Of a stretch of 64,000 nucleotides of DNA, positions 2,105 through 33,721 are shown piece by piece. A model generated the notes under the pieces. It worked only from the letters and a program-made list of their open reading frames with translations, made no database searches and was not told the DNA's origin. The DNA comes from a virus. The stretch covers positions 32,001 through 96,000 of IMG/VR virus record IMGVR_UViG_3300033146_001917, one strand, 5' to 3'. Position 1 is the stretch's first letter, and each line of letters starts with the position of its first letter. The translations under genes were made by a program, and so were the position numbers.

Positions 2105-2452
2105 ATGGATAATTCACGCTACGAAAGGACACACTATTACGGTAGTGTGTCCTTTTTTCTTGCCGACTACACTCCCCGACTCGATGAATGTCGGTTCTTA
2201 ATATTAAAAATCATCGAGCAGTCTATAAGAGATTATATTGCACTTTATCAAATAGAATCACAGCCAGAATATGGTGATTGGATAACGGCTAAGGATTTCT
2301 TGTTCGATGATACATACAAAATAAACTGGGGTGACCAAGACATAAGTCTTTTAGAATTATGTGAAATTGTAAACATGGATTTACTGTATCTAAGAAAACG
2401 TGTACAGCAACGCTTTAAAAAAAGGCATTATCATTATGGCCCGAAAAAATGA
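2105..2452 (+). CDS. Hypothetical protein
   Basis: 115-aa ORF packed between nrdJ and recA. Confidence 0.7.
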
Positions 2453-3113
2453 ACCTGAAATATCTAGCACTAAACTTGAAATAGCAAAAAAACAATTAGA
2501 AAAACAATTTGGTAAAGGAATCCTTACTCGTGGTTCAGAACGAGTAATGGGAGTAGAGTTCTTTTCATCTCAGTCTATTGGAGTTGATAGGGCATTAGGC
2601 GGCGGATGGCCTCGTGGACGCATGATAGAAATAATGGGTCCTGAATCCAGTGGAAAGACAACACTTACACTGCATGCTATTGCTGAAGTCCAGAAACAAG
2701 GAGGTACAGCTGCATTCATAGACATGGAACATGCCTTAGACCCTATATATGCTACTGCTCTAGGTGTGAACATGGATGAACTGTTTATCTCTCAACCAGA
2801 CCATGCTCAGCAAGCTCTGAGTGTAGTAGATGCATTAGTTGCTACAGGAGATATTGCTTTAGTAGTGATTGACTCAGTTGCTGCTCTAGTACCTCAACAA
2901 GAAATGGATGGTGAAATGGGTGCTAGCAATATGGGGCTACATGCCAGATTAATGAGTCAAGCTATGCGCAAATTAGCAGGCATAACATATAAAACAGGCA
3001 CTACAATTATCTGGATTAATCAAATCAGAATGAAAATTGGAGTGGTATTTGGTAATCCAGAGACATGTGTCTCTCCCTCTACTAAGATAACATGGCGTAA
3101 GATGCATAAATAG
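2436..3113 (+). CDS. recA: RecA N-terminal part fused to a 15-aa split-intein N-fragment
   Basis: GPESSGKTT Walker [34 protein letters not shown], then [15 protein letters not shown] and TAG; start taken at ATG 2436. Confidence 0.95.
3066..3110 (+). mobile_element. Split intein N-fragment (15 aa)
   Basis: Block-A-like CVSPSTKI starts exactly after GNPET, where RecA normally continues TTGG. Confidence 0.85.
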
Positions 3114-3190: not shown

Positions 3191-3646
3191 ATGGATCAGA
3201 CAGGAACAATAGCCGAATTATTTGCCCAGTGCAATATTGATTGGGAGCAATTAGAACCGGACGATATTGTTGATATATCTCACCTTAATATAGAAACTAA
3301 GAGTTTTGATTTAGCTACCCAAAGATTTGTTTGGAAACAAATCTTAAACTTAAGGCGTAGACATGACGCAGTGGAATATATTGTCAAACAAGACGATAAG
3401 ATAGTTCTACGTTGCAATGGTGCTCATAAAATTCTTATTCATGATGGAGTACATGATATATGGAAAAGTGCAGACAATATATATAAACGATGTCTGTCTA
3501 CTGGTTTTGTATTAGGTGTTACTGGCAGTATGGAACATGATGTTCGTGAAATTCAATGTGAAAAAACGAACAATATTATTCCAGTATTGGATATGGAAGT
3601 CGCTGATACTAGCACCTATATAATAGGTGACCTAATAAATCACAAC
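3191..3646 (+). mobile_element. Split intein C-fragment (152 aa, no endonuclease)
   Basis: Block B His, block F VLDMEV, terminal HN with Thr at +1. Confidence 0.88.
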
Positions 3647-4009
3647 ACTACGGGTGGTAATGCACTCAAGTTTTATGCTTCACAACGAGTAGATATTAGA
3701 CGTATTGGTGTAGTGAAGACAGATGGAAATGCTACTGCGAATAAGACACGAGTTAAGATAATTAAGAACAAAGTAGCCCCTCCATTTAAGGAACATGAAT
3801 TTGAAATTATTTATGGAGTAGGAATTGATATCTACTCAGACTTGTTGGATGTTGCTACCGAATTAGGAATAATAGGTAAGGCCGGTGCATGGTATTCCTA
3901 TAACAACGAAAATATTGGACAAGGACGGATACAGACTGCCCAATATATAAAAGATCGGCCAGAGTTAGTAGCTGAGCTACGAGATAAAATCTTTAATGGT
4001 AAAGGATAA
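3191..4009 (+). CDS. recA: Split-intein C-fragment fused to RecA C-terminal part
   Basis: Own GGAG SD at 3177-3180; intein blocks LRCNGAHKILI and VLDMEVADTSTYIIGDLINHN followed by TTGGNALKFYASQRVDIRR, KNKVAPPFK, GAWYSY, GQGR. Confidence 0.95.
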   Translation: MDQTGTIAELFAQCNIDWEQLEPDDIVDISHLNIETKSFDLATQRFVWKQILNLRRRHDAVEYIVKQDDKIVLRCNGAHKILIHDGVHDIWKSADNIYKRCLSTGFVLGVTGSMEHDVREIQCEKTNNIIPVLDMEVADTSTYIIGDLINHNTTGGNALKFYASQRVDIRRIGVVKTDGNATANKTRVKIIKNKVAPPFKEHEFEIIYGVGIDIYSDLLDVATELGIIGKAGAWYSYNNENIGQGRIQTAQYIKDRPELVAELRDKIFNGKG

Positions 4010-5006
4010 CTTTGTACATTTACATGTTCATACTGAATACAGCATACTAGATGGCGTATCTAAAATTGAGTCATTAGTACAGCGTGTTAAAAATTTAGGA
4101 ATGCCTGCTTGTGCAATTACAGACCATGGAGTACTTCATGGTGTAATTGAGTTCTATAAGGCATGTAAGAAGCATGATATAAAACCTATAATAGGATGCG
4201 AAGCATATGTGACTAATGATCCTGACGATACAGAGAAAAGTAATTGTACACGTGACAATTACCATATGGTAATGCTCTGTCAGAACGAAGTGGGATTCAA
4301 AAATCTAGTATGGTTAATTAATCAAGCTAATATACATAACTTCTATTACAAACCTAGAATATCTTGGAATAATTTAGCGGCACACAGTGATGGACTAATT
4401 GTTACATCAGCATGTCTAGCAGGACCCCTCGCGAAAAAAAATAATAACGAAAAAAAGATTCGAGGTTTGTTCTATGATAAAGAAACCCAAACAGTCTCGG
4501 ATCCGCTAGGCAGCGGACGTGAACGCGCAAGGCAACTTGCGGATATATTTGGTGATAGATTTTATGTTGAAATACAACCGCACCAAATGTGGGAACAACA
4601 AGCATACAATAAATGGGCTATCCAACTTGCTCGTGACGAGGGATATGAGTTAGTTATAACCACAGATGCTCATTATTTACGTCAAGAAGATAAGGAAGTC
4701 CATGAATTACTCATGGCTCAACAGTTAAAGAAAACTTTAACTGAATATCTAGATGGAGAAATAATGAGATATGAAGGTGGCGAATTTTGGATACGCGAGA
4801 CAGATGAGATGTATAAAGAAGCACGTAAACTAGGTGCCTTCAATGCATGTATTAACACTGTTCGAATTGCGGAACGTTGTAACCTAGAAATAGAATTAGG
4901 TGAATACGAAATTCCAGATTATGATATAACACTTACTCCGGACTACAAGGACTTTAAACAGTGGCAAATTCAGAACTCAATGATTACTTCCGTTATAAAT
5001 GTTTAA
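3996..5006 (+). CDS. dnaE: DNA polymerase III alpha, stand-alone PHP domain
   Basis: FVHLHVHTEYSILDG, AITDHG, GCEAY, FYYKPR, SACLAG, TTDAHY, NTVRIAERC. Confidence 0.93.
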   Translation: MVKDNFVHLHVHTEYSILDGVSKIESLVQRVKNLGMPACAITDHGVLHGVIEFYKACKKHDIKPIIGCEAYVTNDPDDTEKSNCTRDNYHMVMLCQNEVGFKNLVWLINQANIHNFYYKPRISWNNLAAHSDGLIVTSACLAGPLAKKNNNEKKIRGLFYDKETQTVSDPLGSGRERARQLADIFGDRFYVEIQPHQMWEQQAYNKWAIQLARDEGYELVITTDAHYLRQEDKEVHELLMAQQLKKTLTEYLDGEIMRYEGGEFWIRETDEMYKEARKLGAFNACINTVRIAERCNLEIELGEYEIPDYDITLTPDYKDFKQWQIQNSMITSVINV

Positions 5007-8000
5007 AGGGGTTACGTGATAAACAACTAGATAATAAACCAGAGTATGTAAGTAGATTAGACTACGAAATTAAAGTAATTACTAAACTAGGATTCGCTGG
5101 CTACTTTTTACTATTTAGAGATATTATTAATTGGGCACGCGAAAATAATATTTTCGTAGGTCCTGGGCGCGGTAGTGCTGCGGGTGCGCTTACATCATAT
5201 TGTTTAGGTATTACAAACTTAGATCCTATCAAATTAGGTTTACTATTTGAACGTTTTTTAAATCCAGATCGTCTTGGGTCTCCATATATATCAACAACTC
5301 AATTATCATTCGATGAATTTACGAATACAATATTGCCACAATTTACTGAAGATGTATTAATTTCAGACAATGAATTAGAATCAATGTGTGAAAAACCAGG
5401 ATTCTATGAAGAAGCACAGATAGAATTCTCTGGTTTAACACAAGACAAGAAAAAATACATCTCATATTTAAAGCAACAAGGTATAAAATATGACAATCCA
5501 GATAATTCTCATTTACTATATGCTATTGGGTGTACTGATGATCCTCCAATTGGATATGTGACACGTATAGGTGGTGCTGGATTATGTGATATAGATGTTG
5601 ATTTTGAAGAACGTTATCGTTCTAAAGTTATACAACATGTACAGGAAGTGTTTGGTACTGATCGTGTTGTACACATTGGTACATTTGGAAAACAGAGAGC
5701 CAAGGCAGCTATTAAATCAGTAGCAAAAAGTCTAGGTTACCCCTATGTTATTGGAGATGATCTAACAAAATTACTATTAGAACCAGTTCATGGTAAACCA
5801 CAATCCATTTCTGATTCAATCACCAAAGTAAAAAAATTACAAACATATATGGCCAGTGAAGTACCACAACGTGAAATACTTCAGTGGGCTCAAAAAATAG
5901 AAAATCATATTAATAATGTAGGAGTGCATGCTTCTGGAATTATTATTGCTAATCAGTCACTTCTAGACACTGTGCCATTATTTGTAGACAAAGAAGGCGG
6001 ATTGGCTACCCAATGGGACATGGGTAATATAGAAGAAACAGGACTTATTAAGTTTGATTTTTTAGGTTTGGATGCACTTACTAAAATACACACTTGCATA
6101 GATCTCGTTAAAGAACTTCGTGATATAACAATAAACATAGATAAAATTCCATTAGATGATGATTCGGTATTTTTACGTCTACGTCAGGGTGACTCGGTTG
6201 GTATATTCCAATTAGAAGCATCAGGTGGAATGAGAGATTTATCTATGCAGATTCGACCTGCACAATTTGAGGATCTAATAGCTCTTATAGCTATTTATCG
6301 TCCTGGTCCTTTATCATCTTCATATAAACAAATATATTTAGATGCACGAGCCGGAAATAGAGAACCTGAGTATCTAGTACCTGAGCTAGAGCCTATTTTA
6401 GGAGAAACTGCAGGGTGGTGTATTTACCAAGACGAACTTGTTCATACACCAAATGGTAAAGTAAAAATACATACATTAAAAGATAAAGATATTATCTTGA
6501 ATGGTGAATACAAACCTACAACTATAAAACATATCTGGAATTCTGGTACTAAAAACGTAATAAGATATGACTTTGATAATAATTCCAACATAGCGTGTAC
6601 TGCTGATCATCCTGTAAAAACTATTACTGGATATCTACCCATAAGTAAAACACCTAGTGTAATTAGATATCGTAATAAACAATTAGAGATAATTGATATC
6701 AATATAGGTATCAATGAAGCATGGATATTAGGAATGGTATTAGGAGATGGATGCACTACAGATTCTTCTCCCACTATAGCTACAGACACATTAATCAATG
6801 CTGATATTATTAAAGATACATTACAGCAAGTCTTCCCCGAATTAATAACAAAAAAGTTTTTTGCTACTCGTGCATGGTATGTAGGTGCAAAAAGACAACA
6901 AGGAGTGTACAAAAATAAATTTAATACCTGGTTACGTAGGTATAATCTATTCAATATAAAAGCTAATAAGAAGCAAATTCCAGATATATTTTTTAAGGCC
7001 AATAGTAAATTAATAGATAGCTTATTGGCAGGACTTTGGGATAGCGATGGATGTATTCATCAGCATGGTATGTTTTATACATCTACTAGTACTGTGTTAC
7101 TAGATCAAATGTCTATATTATTAGATTTTAGATATATTACATATTATAGAACTAATAATAGGATTTATATTCGTGATACCGAGTTATTTGCATCTTGTTT
7201 AGCTCCATATCTTAAATTGAAAACAGTTAATAATATAAATTTATCAATAACTGGTGGCTTAATTGTTAGTAGGCAATATCTTAGAAACTTAATTGATAAG
7301 TATCGACAAGCTACAGGGTTGTCCATAAAGCAAGAATGTGTATCTAGAGGTATAAGTAATTCATCTTATTTTGAATCTACGAATGCAAAACTAAGTACTA
7401 TAATAAAAGCTTTTCCAGAAGAACATATAATAGAAAATTTTATTCGCGGGGAAGTGTCCTTACATAATATAACAGAAGAATCACTAGTAGGAAAATACGA
7501 CGTATACGATATTGAAGTAGATGGTGATGAACATAGCTTTATTGTGGGGTCTGGAGATGGGATTATAGTCCATAATTGTATCTACCAAGAACAAGTCATG
7601 GAAATCAGCAAACAACTGTGTGGGTATACAGGTGGTGAAGCTGATGAAATGAGAAAGGCTATTGGTAAAAAGAAACAAGCCTTAATGGACAAACATAAAC
7701 CTAAATTTATGAATGGTTGGGTAAAGCATGGGTTACCTGAACATAAAGCTGAAACTATGTGGGATACTATTGTAGGATTTTCAGCATATGGGTTTAATAA
7801 AACACTGGACAAAGATACACAAATTGCCACAATAAATGGTGTTAAAAGAATAGAGGACTGTTCTGAGCGAGACACTATTTATACATTAGATTCTGCAGGT
7901 AACACAGTTGAATCACATGTTGTAGCCTTACACGATCATGGAATTGTACCTCTATGGGAGATAGAATTCGATGACGGAACAACTGAACAATGTACACTTG

Positions 8001-9694
8001 ACCACAAATGGGCAACAGAGTGGGGACAACAGCCACTCTGGAGAATCCTTAACTTGGACTGCAAAGTGTGGGGCAAAATCCCATTCACGACAAGCAAGTC
8101 CGAAACTATCAAAAATGGAAGAGAGGAAACAAGTAGGCTTCATCAACAAACAACTCAAGATAGCAATAGAAATCGATGGACCATGGCACTTTTTTCCGGT
8201 TCATGGAGAAAATATACTACAGAGAACTCAGACAAGAGACAGATCGATGGAGAACTTCAGATCGTCAGGAGAGCTTATCAAGATATCATTGATATACCTC
8301 TACAAAATGTTCAAAGATCCACACCTCCCACCAATTGTATATGTAGGGGAATTGTACGAATCTCTTATGTTGGATTACGGCGAGGATATGATCTTGAGGT
8401 AGACCATCCCTCGCATAACTTTTTATTAGCGTCTGGTTTATGTTGCAGTAATAGCCATGCAGCTGCTTACGCATTGATTACTTACCAGACAGCATATTTA
8501 AAAGCACACTATACCGTAGAGTACATGTGTGCATGTATGATTAGTAATGCAGGTAATACAGATCAAATGATTAAGTTATTAGCTGAATGTAAGGCTATTG
8601 ATATACAAGTATTGCCTCCAGATATAAATAAGAGTAGGGAATCGTTTCATATTGATGATGGTGCAATACGATTTGGTCTCGGTCCTATAAAGAATTTAGG
8701 TTTGTCTCCTGTACAATCAATAATAAAAGAACGCCACCGCAGAAAATTTAAAAGCTTACGAGATTTTTGCGAGCGTATTGATCTGGCTATAATTAATAGG
8801 CGCAAACTAGAAGCATTGATTTCTTCAGGATCATTTGACAATATCGGTGCTAATCGTGCTACTATGCTAAATGCAGTAGATAAAATATGGGAGTATAACA
8901 AAGAGTTAAAAAAATATAATAAAAAGATTATTACATATCGAGCTAAAATAGATCAGGTAGCACAAAGGTTAGAAGACATAGAAAATGGTGTCTTATCATC
9001 TAAAGGGAAAAAACTTAGTCGTCTCAAAATGCCTGCTCCTGTCCTTGAACCAGAATGGCCAACAATTTTAGTTCAAGACGAAATGTCCGATACAGAAATA
9101 CAGAAAACAGAACACCAATTATTAGGTTTTTATGTTTCGTCACACCCAATGGAACAATTTTATTCTAAATTTGGTAAGCACAAACTTGGAATAGATTCTG
9201 TAATGAAAGCAGAACATAAATCTAAAATATCTTTTGCTGCAGTAGTTACTCGTATTCAAATAATAACTACTAAATCAAAAAAGAAAATGGCATTTATAAC
9301 ATTAGAAGATCTAACTAATAGTTTAGAGGGTGTGCTATTTACTGGACCATATACTAAATATGAATCTATTTTAGAAGAAGGTACAGTTTATACTATTGAC
9401 GGAACAGTAGAACAAGTTGAAGTTGATGATGCAAAAAGTACAAAAGTAATTATATGGAAAATGCATCCTATTGTTTTAGACCAAGATAGACAAGAGAATA
9501 TATACGTAGAAGTACCAGTTGAAAGTCTAGAAGTATATCTACAAATCCTAGATAAGTATGCTGGTGAATTGCATAGAATTAATACCACACTTGTAAGTTT
9601 AGATAACACTAGATTTCGGTTTGAATCACCACGCAAGATTGGAAATTTTCTAGGAGCATTTATGGTAGAGGTACCAAGTGTCAAAACAAGATAA
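4961..9694 (+). CDS. dnaE: DNA polymerase III alpha, polymerase/HhH/OB part with two inteins
   Basis: GTG start with AAGGA SD; GPGRGSAAG, FERFLNP, DIDVDF, HASG, KFDFLGL, YQEQ, GFNK-SHA, LPPDIN, LLGFYVSSHP. Confidence 0.95.
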   Translation: MANSELNDYFRYKCLKGLRDKQLDNKPEYVSRLDYEIKVITKLGFAGYFLLFRDIINWARENNIFVGPGRGSAAGALTSYCLGITNLDPIKLGLLFERFLNPDRLGSPYISTTQLSFDEFTNTILPQFTEDVLISDNELESMCEKPGFYEEAQIEFSGLTQDKKKYISYLKQQGIKYDNPDNSHLLYAIGCTDDPPIGYVTRIGGAGLCDIDVDFEERYRSKVIQHVQEVFGTDRVVHIGTFGKQRAKAAIKSVAKSLGYPYVIGDDLTKLLLEPVHGKPQSISDSITKVKKLQTYMASEVPQREILQWAQKIENHINNVGVHASGIIIANQSLLDTVPLFVDKEGGLATQWDMGNIEETGLIKFDFLGLDALTKIHTCIDLVKELRDITINIDKIPLDDDSVFLRLRQGDSVGIFQLEASGGMRDLSMQIRPAQFEDLIALIAIYRPGPLSSSYKQIYLDARAGNREPEYLVPELEPILGETAGWCIYQDELVHTPNGKVKIHTLKDKDIILNGEYKPTTIKHIWNSGTKNVIRYDFDNNSNIACTADHPVKTITGYLPISKTPSVIRYRNKQLEIIDINIGINEAWILGMVLGDGCTTDSSPTIATDTLINADIIKDTLQQVFPELITKKFFATRAWYVGAKRQQGVYKNKFNTWLRRYNLFNIKANKKQIPDIFFKANSKLIDSLLAGLWDSDGCIHQHGMFYTSTSTVLLDQMSILLDFRYITYYRTNNRIYIRDTELFASCLAPYLKLKTVNNINLSITGGLIVSRQYLRNLIDKYRQATGLSIKQECVSRGISNSSYFESTNAKLSTIIKAFPEEHIIENFIRGEVSLHNITEESLVGKYDVYDIEVDGDEHSFIVGSGDGIIVHNCIYQEQVMEISKQLCGYTGGEADEMRKAIGKKKQALMDKHKPKFMNGWVKHGLPEHKAETMWDTIVGFSAYGFNKTLDKDTQIATINGVKRIEDCSERDTIYTLDSAGNTVESHVVALHDHGIVPLWEIEFDDGTTEQCTLDHKWATEWGQQPLWRILNLDCKVWGKIPFTTSKSETIKNGREETSRLHQQTTQDSNRNRWTMALFSGSWRKYTTENSDKRQIDGELQIVRRAYQDIIDIPLQNVQRSTPPTNCICRGIVRISYVGLRRGYDLEVDHPSHNFLLASGLCCSNSHAAAYALITYQTAYLKAHYTVEYMCACMISNAGNTDQMIKLLAECKAIDIQVLPPDINKSRESFHIDDGAIRFGLGPIKNLGLSPVQSIIKERHRRKFKSLRDFCERIDLAIINRRKLEALISSGSFDNIGANRATMLNAVDKIWEYNKELKKYNKKIITYRAKIDQVAQRLEDIENGVLSSKGKKLSRLKMPAPVLEPEWPTILVQDEMSDTEIQKTEHQLLGFYVSSHPMEQFYSKFGKHKLGIDSVMKAEHKSKISFAAVVTRIQIITTKSKKKMAFITLEDLTNSLEGVLFTGPYTKYESILEEGTVYTIDGTVEQVEVDDAKSTKVIIWKMHPIVLDQDRQENIYVEVPVESLEVYLQILDKYAGELHRINTTLVSLDNTRFRFESPRKIGNFLGAFMVEVPSVKTR
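6419..7576 (+). mobile_element. DnaE intein 1 with LAGLIDADG homing endonuclease (386 aa)
   Basis: Starts CIYQDELVHTPNG, block B CTADH, motifs WILGMVLGDGC and LLAGLWDSDGC, ends VYDIEV...IVHN before CIYQEQ. Confidence 0.92.
7802..8452 (+). mobile_element. DnaE intein 2 (217 aa, Thr at position 1)
   Basis: Inserted in GFNK|SHA; starts TLDKDTQI, block B CTLDH, ends GYDLEVDHPSHNF...CCSN. Confidence 0.9.
8115..8402 (+). pseudogene. Decayed PD-(D/E)XK (Vsr/DUF559-like) endonuclease in the +1 frame inside intein 2
   Basis: Alternative frame reads KQVGFINKQLKIAIEIDGPWHFFPVHGENILQRTQTRD...LIKIS; compare LDVFIPALNIGFEYDGIQHF...D...LIRIP in the 17723-18871 nuclease. Confidence 0.7.
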
Positions 9695-31723: not shown

Positions 31724-33721
31724 CTAGAGATCGTTTTGTACCATGGAAGACACTAAGTCATGAAATGAATACTGGGGGTACCAATTCAGTAAATTATGTG
31801 CTTTAGAAGCGTCACCAATTAGCACATTGACTTCTGCAGGACGGAAGAATCTAGGATCAACTGTAACATACTTCTGGTAATCACCTAGTCCAGCAATACC
31901 AAAAGCTATTTCACAAAATTCACGTATAGAACGAGTTTCTCCAGTAGCTAGGATAAAATCTTGTGGTTCATGATGGTTTAACATTCTCCACATACCCTCT
32001 ACATAATCTCCAGCAAAACCCCAGTCACGTTTAGCTTCAAGATTACCTAATGCGATAACGTCTTGTTCACCACGTTTAATCGCACCTATTCCAAGAGTTA
32101 TCTTACGAGTAACAAAGCTAGATCCTCGACGTGGAGAATTGCCTATAACTAAAGTACCAATTCCAGCCATTACATCTCCAGTCTCTGTCTCTACGTCAAA
32201 CACATGTTGATTCTGAGAATGTATGCTAATAATTTTAGTTATTTGATTATTGATTTTCTTAAGATGTTGCCCCTTGTTGGGAAAATCAGGAGAATGCAAG
32301 TTTACTTGATAATATATAGTATTATTTTGAAGAAAACTATTAATATTCCATAATTGATGTGTGACTGATTGAATTAAATACAAAATCCCTTGAGCTAAAA
32401 TTGGAGAATTAGTTTTAAAAGATTTAAATTCATGTATGTATTTATCTTTTTTTGACTCATCAGCTGCATAATAACCTCTAAGAAAAGATAACTTTATATC
32501 AGAAGCACTATTCAAAATCTGCTTTGGCACCTTCTTATGTTTAGTTTTTCGTTCGTAAAGTTGTTTCCTTAACCAACTACAATGATCTTTCCCTAACCCG
32601 GTTACTACAGATTGAGTAGTTGTTCCACCAAAGCCAGAAATAAATTCTTTTTCTGGAATACTAATGTCGCAGAACAAATCAGAAATTAAGTTACTGAATT
32701 CATTTCTTAATTCTTGATCATTGTTAGTAAATTGAATATGATTTTCTCCAATATAACCACCACCTGTAAGTAACCCCATTAGATATGCCATATCGGTTAG
32801 AATAGTTTTGGTTTCGTTAGACTTTGGCATAGTTCCAAACATAACCATAGAATCTTTTTTAAAATCTCTAGCTGGTTTTTTCTGTTGTTCTGAATTAATT
32901 AACTTATGGTTGGGTGTTGTAGTTACAACACCACAACGTGCATTTGTAACTTGTTTGTACTGATTTTCGGTAGATAATTTATTTATCTTCTTGCGACTAA
33001 CAGTTATTAATTTTACAAATTTAAAACCATTCCAGATCTCTGTATTATCATTTCTATAATCTTTTTCTAGATATGAGCTATCATGACTAATATCACTTCT
33101 GTACGAAATTAATTCTGATACGTATTGAATATCAATATCGTTATTCTTTTTAGTGAAAATAGGTGTTTCTGCAAATAAACATTCATGATTAAAGAGGATA
33201 CCATTACAAGCAAACATTTTATATGCTTCACGATAGTTAACAGTAGCCCAATATCCATATAGTTTAGATACTCCATACGGACTACGAGGATGAAATGCTG
33301 TAATCTCTGTGGCTAATTCGCCATTAGTTAGATTACCAAATAATTCACTAGTAGCTGCTTGATAAAATCTGGTATGATATCCAGAAATACGTATCGCTTC
33401 AAGGCAATTAAGTACACCTAGTCCAGTAACATTACTTGTATAGATAGGTTGCTTAAATGAACTGCCAACATGACTCTGTGCAGCTAAGTTATAAAATTCA
33501 TTTGGTTTAGCAGTTTGACATAGATGTACCAAGCTAGTTAGATCTTCTAGGTCACCTTCAATAATTTCAATATCGTTTTCAAGGTGTTTTACATTGCCTA
33601 AATCATTTGAAGATGTTCTACGTTTTAGTCCATATACTTTGTAGTCTTTTTTCAAAAGTAGTTCGGCTAGGTATGATCCATCTTGTCCAGTAATTCCCGT
33701 GATGACTGCCGTTTTATTCAT
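31724..33721 (-). CDS. gmd: GDP-mannose 4,6-dehydratase with intein
   Basis: ITGITGQDGSYLAE, NLAAQSHV, RSPYGVSK, GILFNHE|SPRRG, FVTRKIT, RDWGFAGDYV, RPAEV. Confidence 0.95.
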   Translation of the reverse strand: MNKTAVITGITGQDGSYLAELLLKKDYKVYGLKRRTSSNDLGNVKHLENDIEIIEGDLEDLTSLVHLCQTAKPNEFYNLAAQSHVGSSFKQPIYTSNVTGLGVLNCLEAIRISGYHTRFYQAATSELFGNLTNGELATEITAFHPRSPYGVSKLYGYWATVNYREAYKMFACNGILFNHECLFAETPIFTKKNNDIDIQYVSELISYRSDISHDSSYLEKDYRNDNTEIWNGFKFVKLITVSRKKINKLSTENQYKQVTNARCGVVTTTPNHKLINSEQQKKPARDFKKDSMVMFGTMPKSNETKTILTDMAYLMGLLTGGGYIGENHIQFTNNDQELRNEFSNLISDLFCDISIPEKEFISGFGGTTTQSVVTGLGKDHCSWLRKQLYERKTKHKKVPKQILNSASDIKLSFLRGYYAADESKKDKYIHEFKSFKTNSPILAQGILYLIQSVTHQLWNINSFLQNNTIYYQVNLHSPDFPNKGQHLKKINNQITKIISIHSQNQHVFDVETETGDVMAGIGTLVIGNSPRRGSSFVTRKITLGIGAIKRGEQDVIALGNLEAKRDWGFAGDYVEGMWRMLNHHEPQDFILATGETRSIREFCEIAFGIAGLGDYQKYVTVDPRFFRPAEVNVLIGDASKAHNLLNWYPQYSFHDLVSSMVQNDL
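32138..33181 (-). mobile_element. Gmd intein with degenerate LAGLIDADG endonuclease (348 aa)
   Basis: Starts CLFAETPI, block B TPNH, motifs LMGLLTGGGY and FLRGYYAADES, ends VFDVET...VIGN before Ser. Confidence 0.9.

Follow-up and report, generated by a model that had tools for sequence, protein, structure and literature searches.

Why does the second intein of a phage dnaE gene hold a long reading frame one base out of step with its own, and what did that frame encode? The gene lies in the window, the whole stretch of 64,000 nucleotides (nt) that was analysed (positions 32,001 to 96,000 of the 116-kb viral record IMGVR_UViG_3300033146_001917 of IMG/VR). It encodes the polymerase core part of DNA polymerase III alpha as a 1577-codon open reading frame (ORF; 4961..9694) with two inteins and precomputed Pfam matches PF07733, PF17657, PF14579 and PF01336. 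The gene, its intein 2 and all features described within that intein lie on the + strand. A sequence-only reading of the window had proposed that a free-standing homing endonuclease gene is nested out of frame in intein 2, that the host frame stayed stop-free, and that the nested gene is now decaying. The core of this proposal was supported.

The following explanation is considered very probable. The dnaE intein family is widespread, sits at YGFNK/SH and would be dual-coding in the region between the splicing blocks. The intein frame would be read through there as a stop-free, unstructured spacer, and the polymerase would be made and spliced. The +1 frame would be a separate gene for a Vsr-like homing endonuclease that combines zinc fingers of the C2HC type with a helical region and a nuclease of Vsr fold. 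This gene would most likely be translated from an internal start embedded in the intein motif PLWE(I/V)EFDD, and its product would most likely cut intein-less dnaE alleles, spreading the intein. In this phage, three frame-preserving deletions and an Asp to Gly change would have left a most likely inactive remnant, and the intein would be heading to a mini-intein.

The open +1 frame of intein 2

The +1 frame is open from 7965 to a stop codon at 8400-8402. With the ATG at 7971 it gives a nested ORF of 143 codons plus stop (7971..8402), which is read here as the remnant of a Vsr-like homing endonuclease gene; the span of 8115-8402 assigned to it earlier was too narrow. The frame reads ...KQVGFINKQLKIAIEIDGPWHFFPVHGENILQRTQTRDR...IVYVGELYESL... 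and carries the motifs KQVGF...IEIDGPWHF...TRDR...GELYESL, including the ExDGxxH signature recognised before (EIDGPWHF, 8169..8192). Within dnaE, no +1 stretch stays open for longer than this one (145 codons); the runner-up has 42 codons, and the maximum in the +2 frame is 40.

Both frames were compared with synonymous recodings. When the intein-frame protein was recoded with the codon usage of the gene, 7.2 stops were expected in the +1 frame, and 0/20000 recodings were stop-free. When the +1 protein was recoded, 15.7 stops were expected in the intein frame, and again 0/20000 recodings were stop-free (G+C content of the window, 34%). For the window search, a family hidden Markov model (HMM) was built from 31 relatives with the window's row excluded. 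Its sole match among 744 six-frame segments of the window was 7965-8399 (E 2.8e-30). With the +1 translation as query, phmmer found 17 matches at E<=1e-3 among 1.84 billion representatives, the best at 6.6e-16. The nuclease resemblance of the window ORF is true homology.

An open frame that carries an ExDGxxH motif merely by chance would suit the shortness of the motif and a Pfam search of the nested ORF, which gave no match even at E<=10. This alternative is refuted by the profile match obtained without the window, by the recodings and by the homologues, and its probability is considered negligible. Other searches of the region were blank. Blastn against the phage collection gave no match, and tblastn of the remnant against the same collection reached E>=0.6 at best. 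A word-index protein search with the ORF of 143 amino acids (aa) gave nothing at E<=1; the exhaustive search later succeeded. No second copy of the endonuclease family was found in the 116-kb record by profile search (profile including the window's row).

Intein 2 itself (7802..8452; 217 aa in the dnaE frame) is inserted at YGFNK/SHAAAY, begins with TLDKDT and ends with GLCCSN. The class 1 intein residues are all present, namely Thr1, the block B residues TLDH and a C-terminal CCSN followed by Ser. Residue 1 is T, S or C across the intein family. Block B (TLDHKW, a TxxH motif) lies at 7994..8011, and its residues T65, D67, H68, K69 and W70, together with C64, were invariant in 9/9 aligned N-domains. 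At 8384..8452 are blocks F and G (GYDLEVDHPSHNF ... GLCCSN), after which the C-extein begins with Ser+1. An AlphaFold model of the intein, built with 21 relatives, has a HINT fold with a predicted local distance difference test (pLDDT) score >90 in the splicing domain. Foldseek gave 53 PDB matches for this model at E<=0.001; those listed at the top were inteins and related HINT (bacterial intein-like) domains, the best being the Ssp and Npu DnaE inteins (1zd7, 9.6e-9; 4kl5, 1.3e-8; probability 1.00). A Pfam scan of intein 2 gave nothing at E<=10. The intact motifs and the need for a working DnaE suggest that intein 2 is capable of protein splicing.

Between blocks B and F the intein frame reads ...TTSKSETIKNGREETSRLHQQTTQDSNRNRW... 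over 8060-8402. The linker (residues 97-147; 8090..8242) is a spacer without predicted structure (pLDDT <50), which agrees with the earlier description of this sequence as unstructured. The dnaE reading frame is unbroken from 4961 to 9694, and the gene in the window is thus neither fractured nor of the split-intein type. Just 5' of block F, a helix with the pattern GELQ..(R/W)..Y.. (window intein residues 148-163, 8243-8290) shows conservation in the intein frame, mini-inteins included. The C-terminal third of the endonuclease gene runs across this helix, and the stretch thus appears constrained in both frames.

Two further observations concern the same gene. Intein 1 (6419-7576; 386 aa, CIYQDE...IIVHN/C) contains two in-frame motifs that resemble LAGLIDADG by eye (LGMVLGDGC and LLAGLWDSDGC); one dnaE therefore houses a canonical in-frame and an out-of-frame endonuclease intein. 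The PHP-domain part of DnaE is an ORF of its own (3996-5006), which overlaps the start of the core ORF by 46 nt in another frame. The PHP Pfam domain is also missing from the core protein of several phage relatives (P0003, P0005), which suggests a natural split or a site of frameshifting and not an error.

The intact gene in relatives and the frame under selection

The intein region, used as a query, retrieved 65 DnaE proteins. In 51 of these both flanking motifs could be located, with an insert of 137-446 aa between YGFNK and SH(A/S). FNKSH is contiguous in intein-less DnaE, and no such intein-free allele was present among the homologues retrieved. The long linkers of the relatives are junk-like in the intein frame. 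A shadow motif (R-x-R/G-W-x-x-A-F/L) occurs in 28/65 and is aligned with NRNRWTMALF of the window, and the nuclease motif was found in the intein frame of 0/65.

DNA was examined for 28 genome loci and 20 viral loci. The genome loci came from Thiotrichaceae, Chromatiaceae, Methylococcaceae, Competibacteraceae and one Desulfatirhabdium metagenome-assembled genome. Inteins of 349-430 aa were present at 22 loci, and 21 of these had a +1 ORF of 273-364 codons that ended ~53 nt before the intein end; the +1 ORF of the remaining locus (L013) was interrupted. Fourteen short inteins had no nested ORF, with a longest +1 stretch of 28-122 codons. At three more viral loci (L038, L041, L042), this intein and its +1 ORF occur in host genes other than dnaE.

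Viral and metagenome contigs were also searched with the endonuclease profile only, which gave 27 + 51 = 78 loci, or 65 after 13 exact duplicates had been dropped. The endonuclease was nested in 51 of the 65, where the frame one base upstream was stop-free across the match, within an ORF of 305-1643 aa. All 51 nested copies occupy the same +1 frame, each with its own stop, and intein motifs flank the match on both sides in 48. In 36 of the nested hosts the intein is immediately preceded by GFN(K/R/A) and followed by SH, which marks them as dnaE; ~6 more are probably DnaE, and the rest are other or unresolved hosts. This division is approximate, since a few intein starts were placed wrongly in the parsing of the flanks and L074 was taken for DnaE on account of its SH. 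The 14 non-nested loci comprise six fractured dnaE genes (see below) and eight others whose matches are weak and partial and have a different context.

The same intein with the nested endonuclease was observed in at least two further phage genes (L038, L041/L045, L042/L043, L074, L115), with the flanks ...EAY/C...SN/SETMVHFYP and ...ELMY/S...SN/STLVDSMK. Pfam gave nothing at E<=0.01 on the exteins of L038, L041 and L042. By eye, the exteins of L041 and L042 look like sigma-factor region 2, an unconfirmed resemblance. At L027 (902-1756), the linker of a 285-aa dnaE intein is occupied by two copies of a G+C-rich stretch (PLPTGGGRGEGVEHG, intein frame) and not by the endonuclease gene.

The protein alignment (31 relatives and the window, 32 rows) has three parts. 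The first consists of one to three zinc-finger-like modules (C-x-C...H...C), the second is a conserved helical stretch (...TAKKTSxRxDIQ..R...L..WR..NPE.F), and the third is a C-terminal domain in which S..E, Q, E-x-D, H-F, F, G and Y do not vary and the Asp of KQVDF is near-invariant. An AlphaFold model of the ORF protein of L030, the closest full-length relative of the window's copy, had a mean pLDDT of 86.5. Its two best PDB matches were both E. coli Vsr (1cw0_A, with E 4.4e-3, probability 1.00 and a template modelling score of 0.61 normalised on Vsr; and 1vsr), and a Vsr-type catalytic fold is predicted for this full-length relative. The PHROG families 'homing endonuclease' and 'HNH endonuclease' matched at E ~1e-6. 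The family differs from E. coli Vsr in several respects. Identity is 13-14%, Vsr is a mismatch-repair nickase and not mobile, and the family has an invariant Glu, which the accessible text of Dassa et al. (PMC2677866) places at the position of Vsr Phe62.

For codon-position variability and identity, nine gapless inteins of 371 aa were used. Intein-frame position 3 was the most variable over nt 1-252 and 1009-1113. Over nt 253-1008, variability peaked instead at intein-frame position 1, the third codon position in the +1 reading. Amino acid identity in the linker was 0.27 in the intein frame, 0.44 in the +1 frame and 0.26 in the non-coding +2 frame. For the closest pair (L010/L021), nonsynonymous and synonymous substitution rates (dN/dS) in the linker were 0.075/0.568 (0.13) in the +1 frame, 0.165/0.118 (1.4) in the intein frame and 0.157/0.129 in the +2 frame. 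In the relatives, purifying selection acts on the +1 reading of the linker and not on the intein-frame residues. Towards either end of the nested gene (nt 190-252 and 1009-1071) variability is low at every position, and the frames are jointly constrained; the nested ORF overlaps the N and C splicing domains and not the linker alone.

The intein frame had 0 stops in 21/21 loci, where 2.4-27 were expected from synonymous recoding of the +1 protein. The probability of 0 stops was 0/2000 in 18 loci and 0.0005, 0.06 and 0.09 in three G+C-rich loci. The third frame carries 8-33 stops. Among +1 codons that precede a codon starting with AA, AG or GA, 0/1595 end in T, compared with 27.3% of 4063 other codons. 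The mechanism that keeps the intein frame stop-free is thus visible in the codon choice.

These results also bear on a different history, in which the endonuclease was once an in-frame intein domain, compensating indels shifted it, and the +1 reading is a fossil. Indels of a multiple of three are frequent in the region, and the deep origin of the arrangement is not observable. This history is nevertheless quite improbable: the nuclease motif is absent from the intein frame of all 65 DnaE homologues, the 51 nested copies share one frame and each have a stop of their own, and that frame is now under purifying selection. Moreover, in the fractured relatives this protein has an ORF to itself, and the nested ORF reaches into the N and C splicing domains rather than replacing the linker only.

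For the translation start of the nested gene, the 21 full-length loci were compared. An ATG is present at intein nt 169 or 172 in 14/21, formed from the Asp codons of ...EFDDG, and a GGAG-type motif (Trp-Glu codons of PLWE) lies 4-10 nt 5' of that ATG in 12/14. The window ATG is at intein nt 169, the same offset as in the family, and the Shine-Dalgarno-like motif GGGAGA (7956..7961), 9 nt 5' of this ATG and built from the Trp-Glu codons of PLWEIEFDD, is likewise shared. Phage clades in which the +1 frame opens later have other ATGs after AGGAGG (L035/36) or AAGGAG (L040). Among loci parsed by regular expression, the combination of Shine-Dalgarno-like motif and ATG occurred in 10/15 full-length loci versus 1/7 mini-inteins, which mostly encode the Glu of the motif by GAA, not GAG. 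In this small, phylogenetically non-independent sample, the pattern of motif and ATG is suggestive only of a translation start that the nested gene may have of its own. The family profile and the Vsr matches of the model, the conservation and dN/dS of homologous linkers, which track the +1 frame, and the nested ORFs of relatives with their ATG and Shine-Dalgarno-like motif all came out as the sequence-only reading would have them.

Ribosomes that shift into the +1 frame and back would instead make a canonical fusion of intein and endonuclease. Both frames are open over the overlap, as this would need, and nothing specific speaks for it. Two programmed shifts would be required, the +1 ORF has a conserved stop inside block F, and it opens with an ATG and Shine-Dalgarno-like motifs, which are other ones in phage clades. 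Such a fusion is regarded as very improbable.

Probable decay of the copy in the window

The nearest relatives of the window's endonuclease are phage and metagenome copies (L030=L051, L079, L083). In a pairwise MAFFT alignment, the intein DNA of the window and of L030 was 72% identical across 651 aligned nt. Compared with L030, the window has lost 348 + 66 + 48 nt = 462 nt (154 codons), and neither frame was broken. The junctions, which are uncertain by a few bases, lie within 8073..8243, after ~8073/8094 (348 nt), 8126 (66 nt) and 8243 (48 nt). With the 348-nt deletion (116 codons), the zinc fingers and the helical region are gone. The 66-nt deletion comprises 22 codons of the N-terminal nuclease lobe (the AWLEPHL...RC segment), and the 48-nt deletion comprises 16 codons of the ...MLxxEIxRRxWRLIRL... 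segment, which holds the conserved W-R-L-I-R-L core strand. The start codon of the family and the first 34 residues are retained. The N-terminus is therefore not truncated, as had been supposed from the sequence, and the losses are these three internal, frame-preserving deletions.

The catalytic motif set, Asp (QVDF), E-x-D-G-x-x-H and R-D, is complete in the relatives and incomplete in the window. At the near-invariant Asp of KQVDF (D193 of the alignment, present in at least 90% of the 32 rows), the window has Gly (GGC, 8136..8138), and the replacement of the expected first Asp that had been noted earlier was confirmed. The window keeps the nuclease core EIDGPWHF, of which E, D, H and F are invariant in the family, as well as R-D and the C-terminal G-x-L-Y-E. 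Because the first Asp is Gly and the strand after R-D is missing, the ORF is taken as a remnant and not as a working member. With 154 codons deleted and Gly at a near-invariant Asp, the endonuclease copy of the window is probably inactive. Partial deletions occurred independently in other lineages (L032, L019, L037, P0012), and L013 has a +1 stop. The pattern of decay fits the usual path by which a full intein becomes a mini-intein.

The remnant might still be expressed and functional, as a trimmed nuclease or as a peptide that binds DNA or has a regulatory role, so that the copy would not simply be decaying. All 143 +1 codons are open, the family ATG, the Shine-Dalgarno-like motif and a normal stop are kept, and neither the E-x-D-G-x-x-H-F core nor the C-terminal GxLYE motif is damaged. 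The partly deleted L032, L019 and L037 likewise hold their +1 remnants open. Set against this are the loss of the zinc fingers and helical region, of the lobe codons and of the W-R-L-I-R-L strand segment, and the change of the near-invariant Asp; the variant is also known from a single sequence, which precludes a selection test. A functional remnant is accordingly rated as unlikely.

Several points weigh against the explanation by a nested, decayed Vsr-like gene. The Foldseek E-values to Vsr are modest, and a profile search of PDB sequences gave no nuclease, only a zinc-finger protein at E 0.079. The earlier assignment to Vsr/DUF559-type nucleases stands for the Vsr fold, through the L030 model; for DUF559, the relatives gave sub-threshold matches only. 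In 3/6 full-length relatives, Pfam DUF559 (PF04480) scored 13.6-16.4 bits, under the cut-off of 20.6; the matches of relatives to DUF559 and MTES_1575 had E 0.007-0.06, below curated cut-offs; and the blank Pfam result for the window ORF has been given above. Seven of the 21 full-length loci have no ATG at nt 169 or 172 and must start elsewhere. The Shine-Dalgarno-like motif and the ATG consist of codons for conserved intein residues and are therefore not independent evidence of initiation. The +1 frame of the remnant is still wholly open, which suits recent decay and would also suit residual function. Finally, separate translation, nuclease and homing activity, and the loss of activity in the window are all judged from sequence only. 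With these points taken into account, the dual-coding intein with a nested endonuclease gene that has decayed in this phage is still preferred, at the strength given at the outset.

Fractured relatives, known systems and meaning

Seven fractured dnaE relatives (L044, L058, L068, L069, L111, L121, L125) carry the same endonuclease as a free-standing ORF. L044 was found in the first search and the other six in the profile-only search. In these, an N-terminal ORF that stops shortly past the N-splicing domain is followed by the free-standing endonuclease gene and by an ORF that opens with the C-splicing part. The insertion site, FN(K/R)/SH, is shared. A quick maximum-likelihood tree of 67 endonucleases, unrooted and without bootstraps, required two changes between nested and fractured states. 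The fractured pair L058 and L111 lies inside a clade of 29 rows (Shimodaira-Hasegawa-like approximate likelihood ratio test, 98), of which the other 27 are all nested. The proposal that nested genes are precursors of split inteins thus has comparative support for dnaE, where the fractured relatives occupy the same site; for the split recA intein of the window, which has no endonuclease gene and is split after ~15 residues, there is no such support.

In the window, recA is present as two ORFs (2400-3113 and 3191-4009). The first ends with ...GNPET and just 15 intein-like residues before its stop. The second has a GGAG-type motif and ATG of its own and encodes ~152 intein-like residues up to ...LINHN, followed by TGGNALKFYAS.... 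No endonuclease gene was found in the 77-nt recA gap. The arrangement has the look of an intein split in an atypical way, the N fragment being very short. At L048 and L049, split inteins were observed at ...LDE/C of an AAA+/clamp-loader-like phage gene, the intein halves being separated by a different free-standing gene with an (I/L)E(I/L)DGxxH-like motif.

A broader proposal is put forward tentatively. The dual-coded contiguous state may be the main long-lived habitat of this clade of Vsr-like endonucleases, with PLWE(I/V)EFDD doubling as ribosome-binding site and start, and fractured split inteins may arise repeatedly once the read-through frame gains stops. If true, the dnaE family would be a living series of mini-intein, nested, decayed and fractured states.

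Vsr-like free-standing homing endonucleases were described in fractured genes, three DnaE loci among them, by Dassa et al. 2009. As far as that paper was accessible, its family has in common with the present one a Vsr-fold nuclease with conserved Asp, E-x-D-G-x-(W/F)-H and R-D, inteins of phage-like replication genes, and an endonuclease 3' end that overlaps the C-terminal intein part (by 6-69 bp there, inside block F here). Exactly this fractured layout is found in the seven relatives at FN(K/R)/SH. The nested gene product fits the family of Dassa et al., including the invariant Glu and the 3' overlap. The window and 51/65 loci differ from the published descriptions, with which they were compared in place of sequences, in being unsplit, with the dnaE/intein frame stop-free through the endonuclease gene.

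The idea of nested endonucleases as an alternative to in-frame intein endonucleases, also part of the sequence-only reading, was already published. Out-of-frame intein endonucleases are in print in preprints of 2025-26 and in a 1998 paper cited there (Gorbalenya 1998, PMC147447), which is referred to here through the description in one of these preprints (September 2026). That preprint reports a cyanobacterial dnaX intein with a LAGLIDADG enzyme in a +2 ORF. It resembles the dnaE family in its contiguous intein with a linker disordered in the intein frame, in the overlapping ORF with Shine-Dalgarno-like motifs and low dN/dS against a high dN/dS in the intein frame, and in coexisting mini-intein derivatives; invasion of a mini-intein by a free-standing gene was proposed there. 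In contrast, the enzyme of the dnaE family is Vsr-like with zinc fingers and lies in the +1 frame, and the family extends to fractured members with split inteins and to copies in further host genes.

Non-canonical inteins of actinobacteriophages (bioRxiv 10.1101/2025.01.02.630785), as described in the accessible part of that preprint, also have the endonuclease in another frame than the splicing domain and an in-frame region without recognisable structure. A Vsr-like type is among them, and invasion by a free-standing gene was proposed. Their Vsr-like and LAGLIDADG genes are antisense, the sense-strand out-of-frame case is endonuclease VII-like, and the hosts are actinophage polymerase, capsid, terminase and ThyX genes. 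ShiLan-type hidden HNH insertions in phage methylase genes (PMC11855218) share an out-of-frame zinc-finger endonuclease ORF in a stop-free host ORF; according to the text available, they lack a splicing domain, and the insert is thought to be retained in the host protein as a loop.

For dnaE itself, the accessible text of Flood et al. 2016 (PMC4853749) lists the Thiomargarita dnaE intein as the only one of four without an endonuclease domain, and Watanabe et al. 2019 described a different DnaE intein, of 415 aa, in Desulfonema. No description of the nested gene of the dnaE FNK/SH family was found in the literature searched, of which supplementary files, where members could be listed, were not part. 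The dnaE family is a large, well-supported new example of a described arrangement, directly linked to fractured genes.

Inteins without an in-frame endonuclease domain are usually annotated as mini or degenerate. The large dnaE family, carried by sulfur-oxidising and methanotrophic Gammaproteobacteria, Competibacteraceae and many phages, hides an intact, selected gene one base off, and the window's copy is merely a decayed example of it. The family further offers inteins in which an arbitrary linker of 100-270 residues is tolerated. With full, decaying, mini and split (fractured) states at one site, it is a natural system for the origin of split inteins and for the cost of overlapping coding; the avoidance of T-ending codons before Lys, Asn, Asp, Glu and AGN codons is complete.

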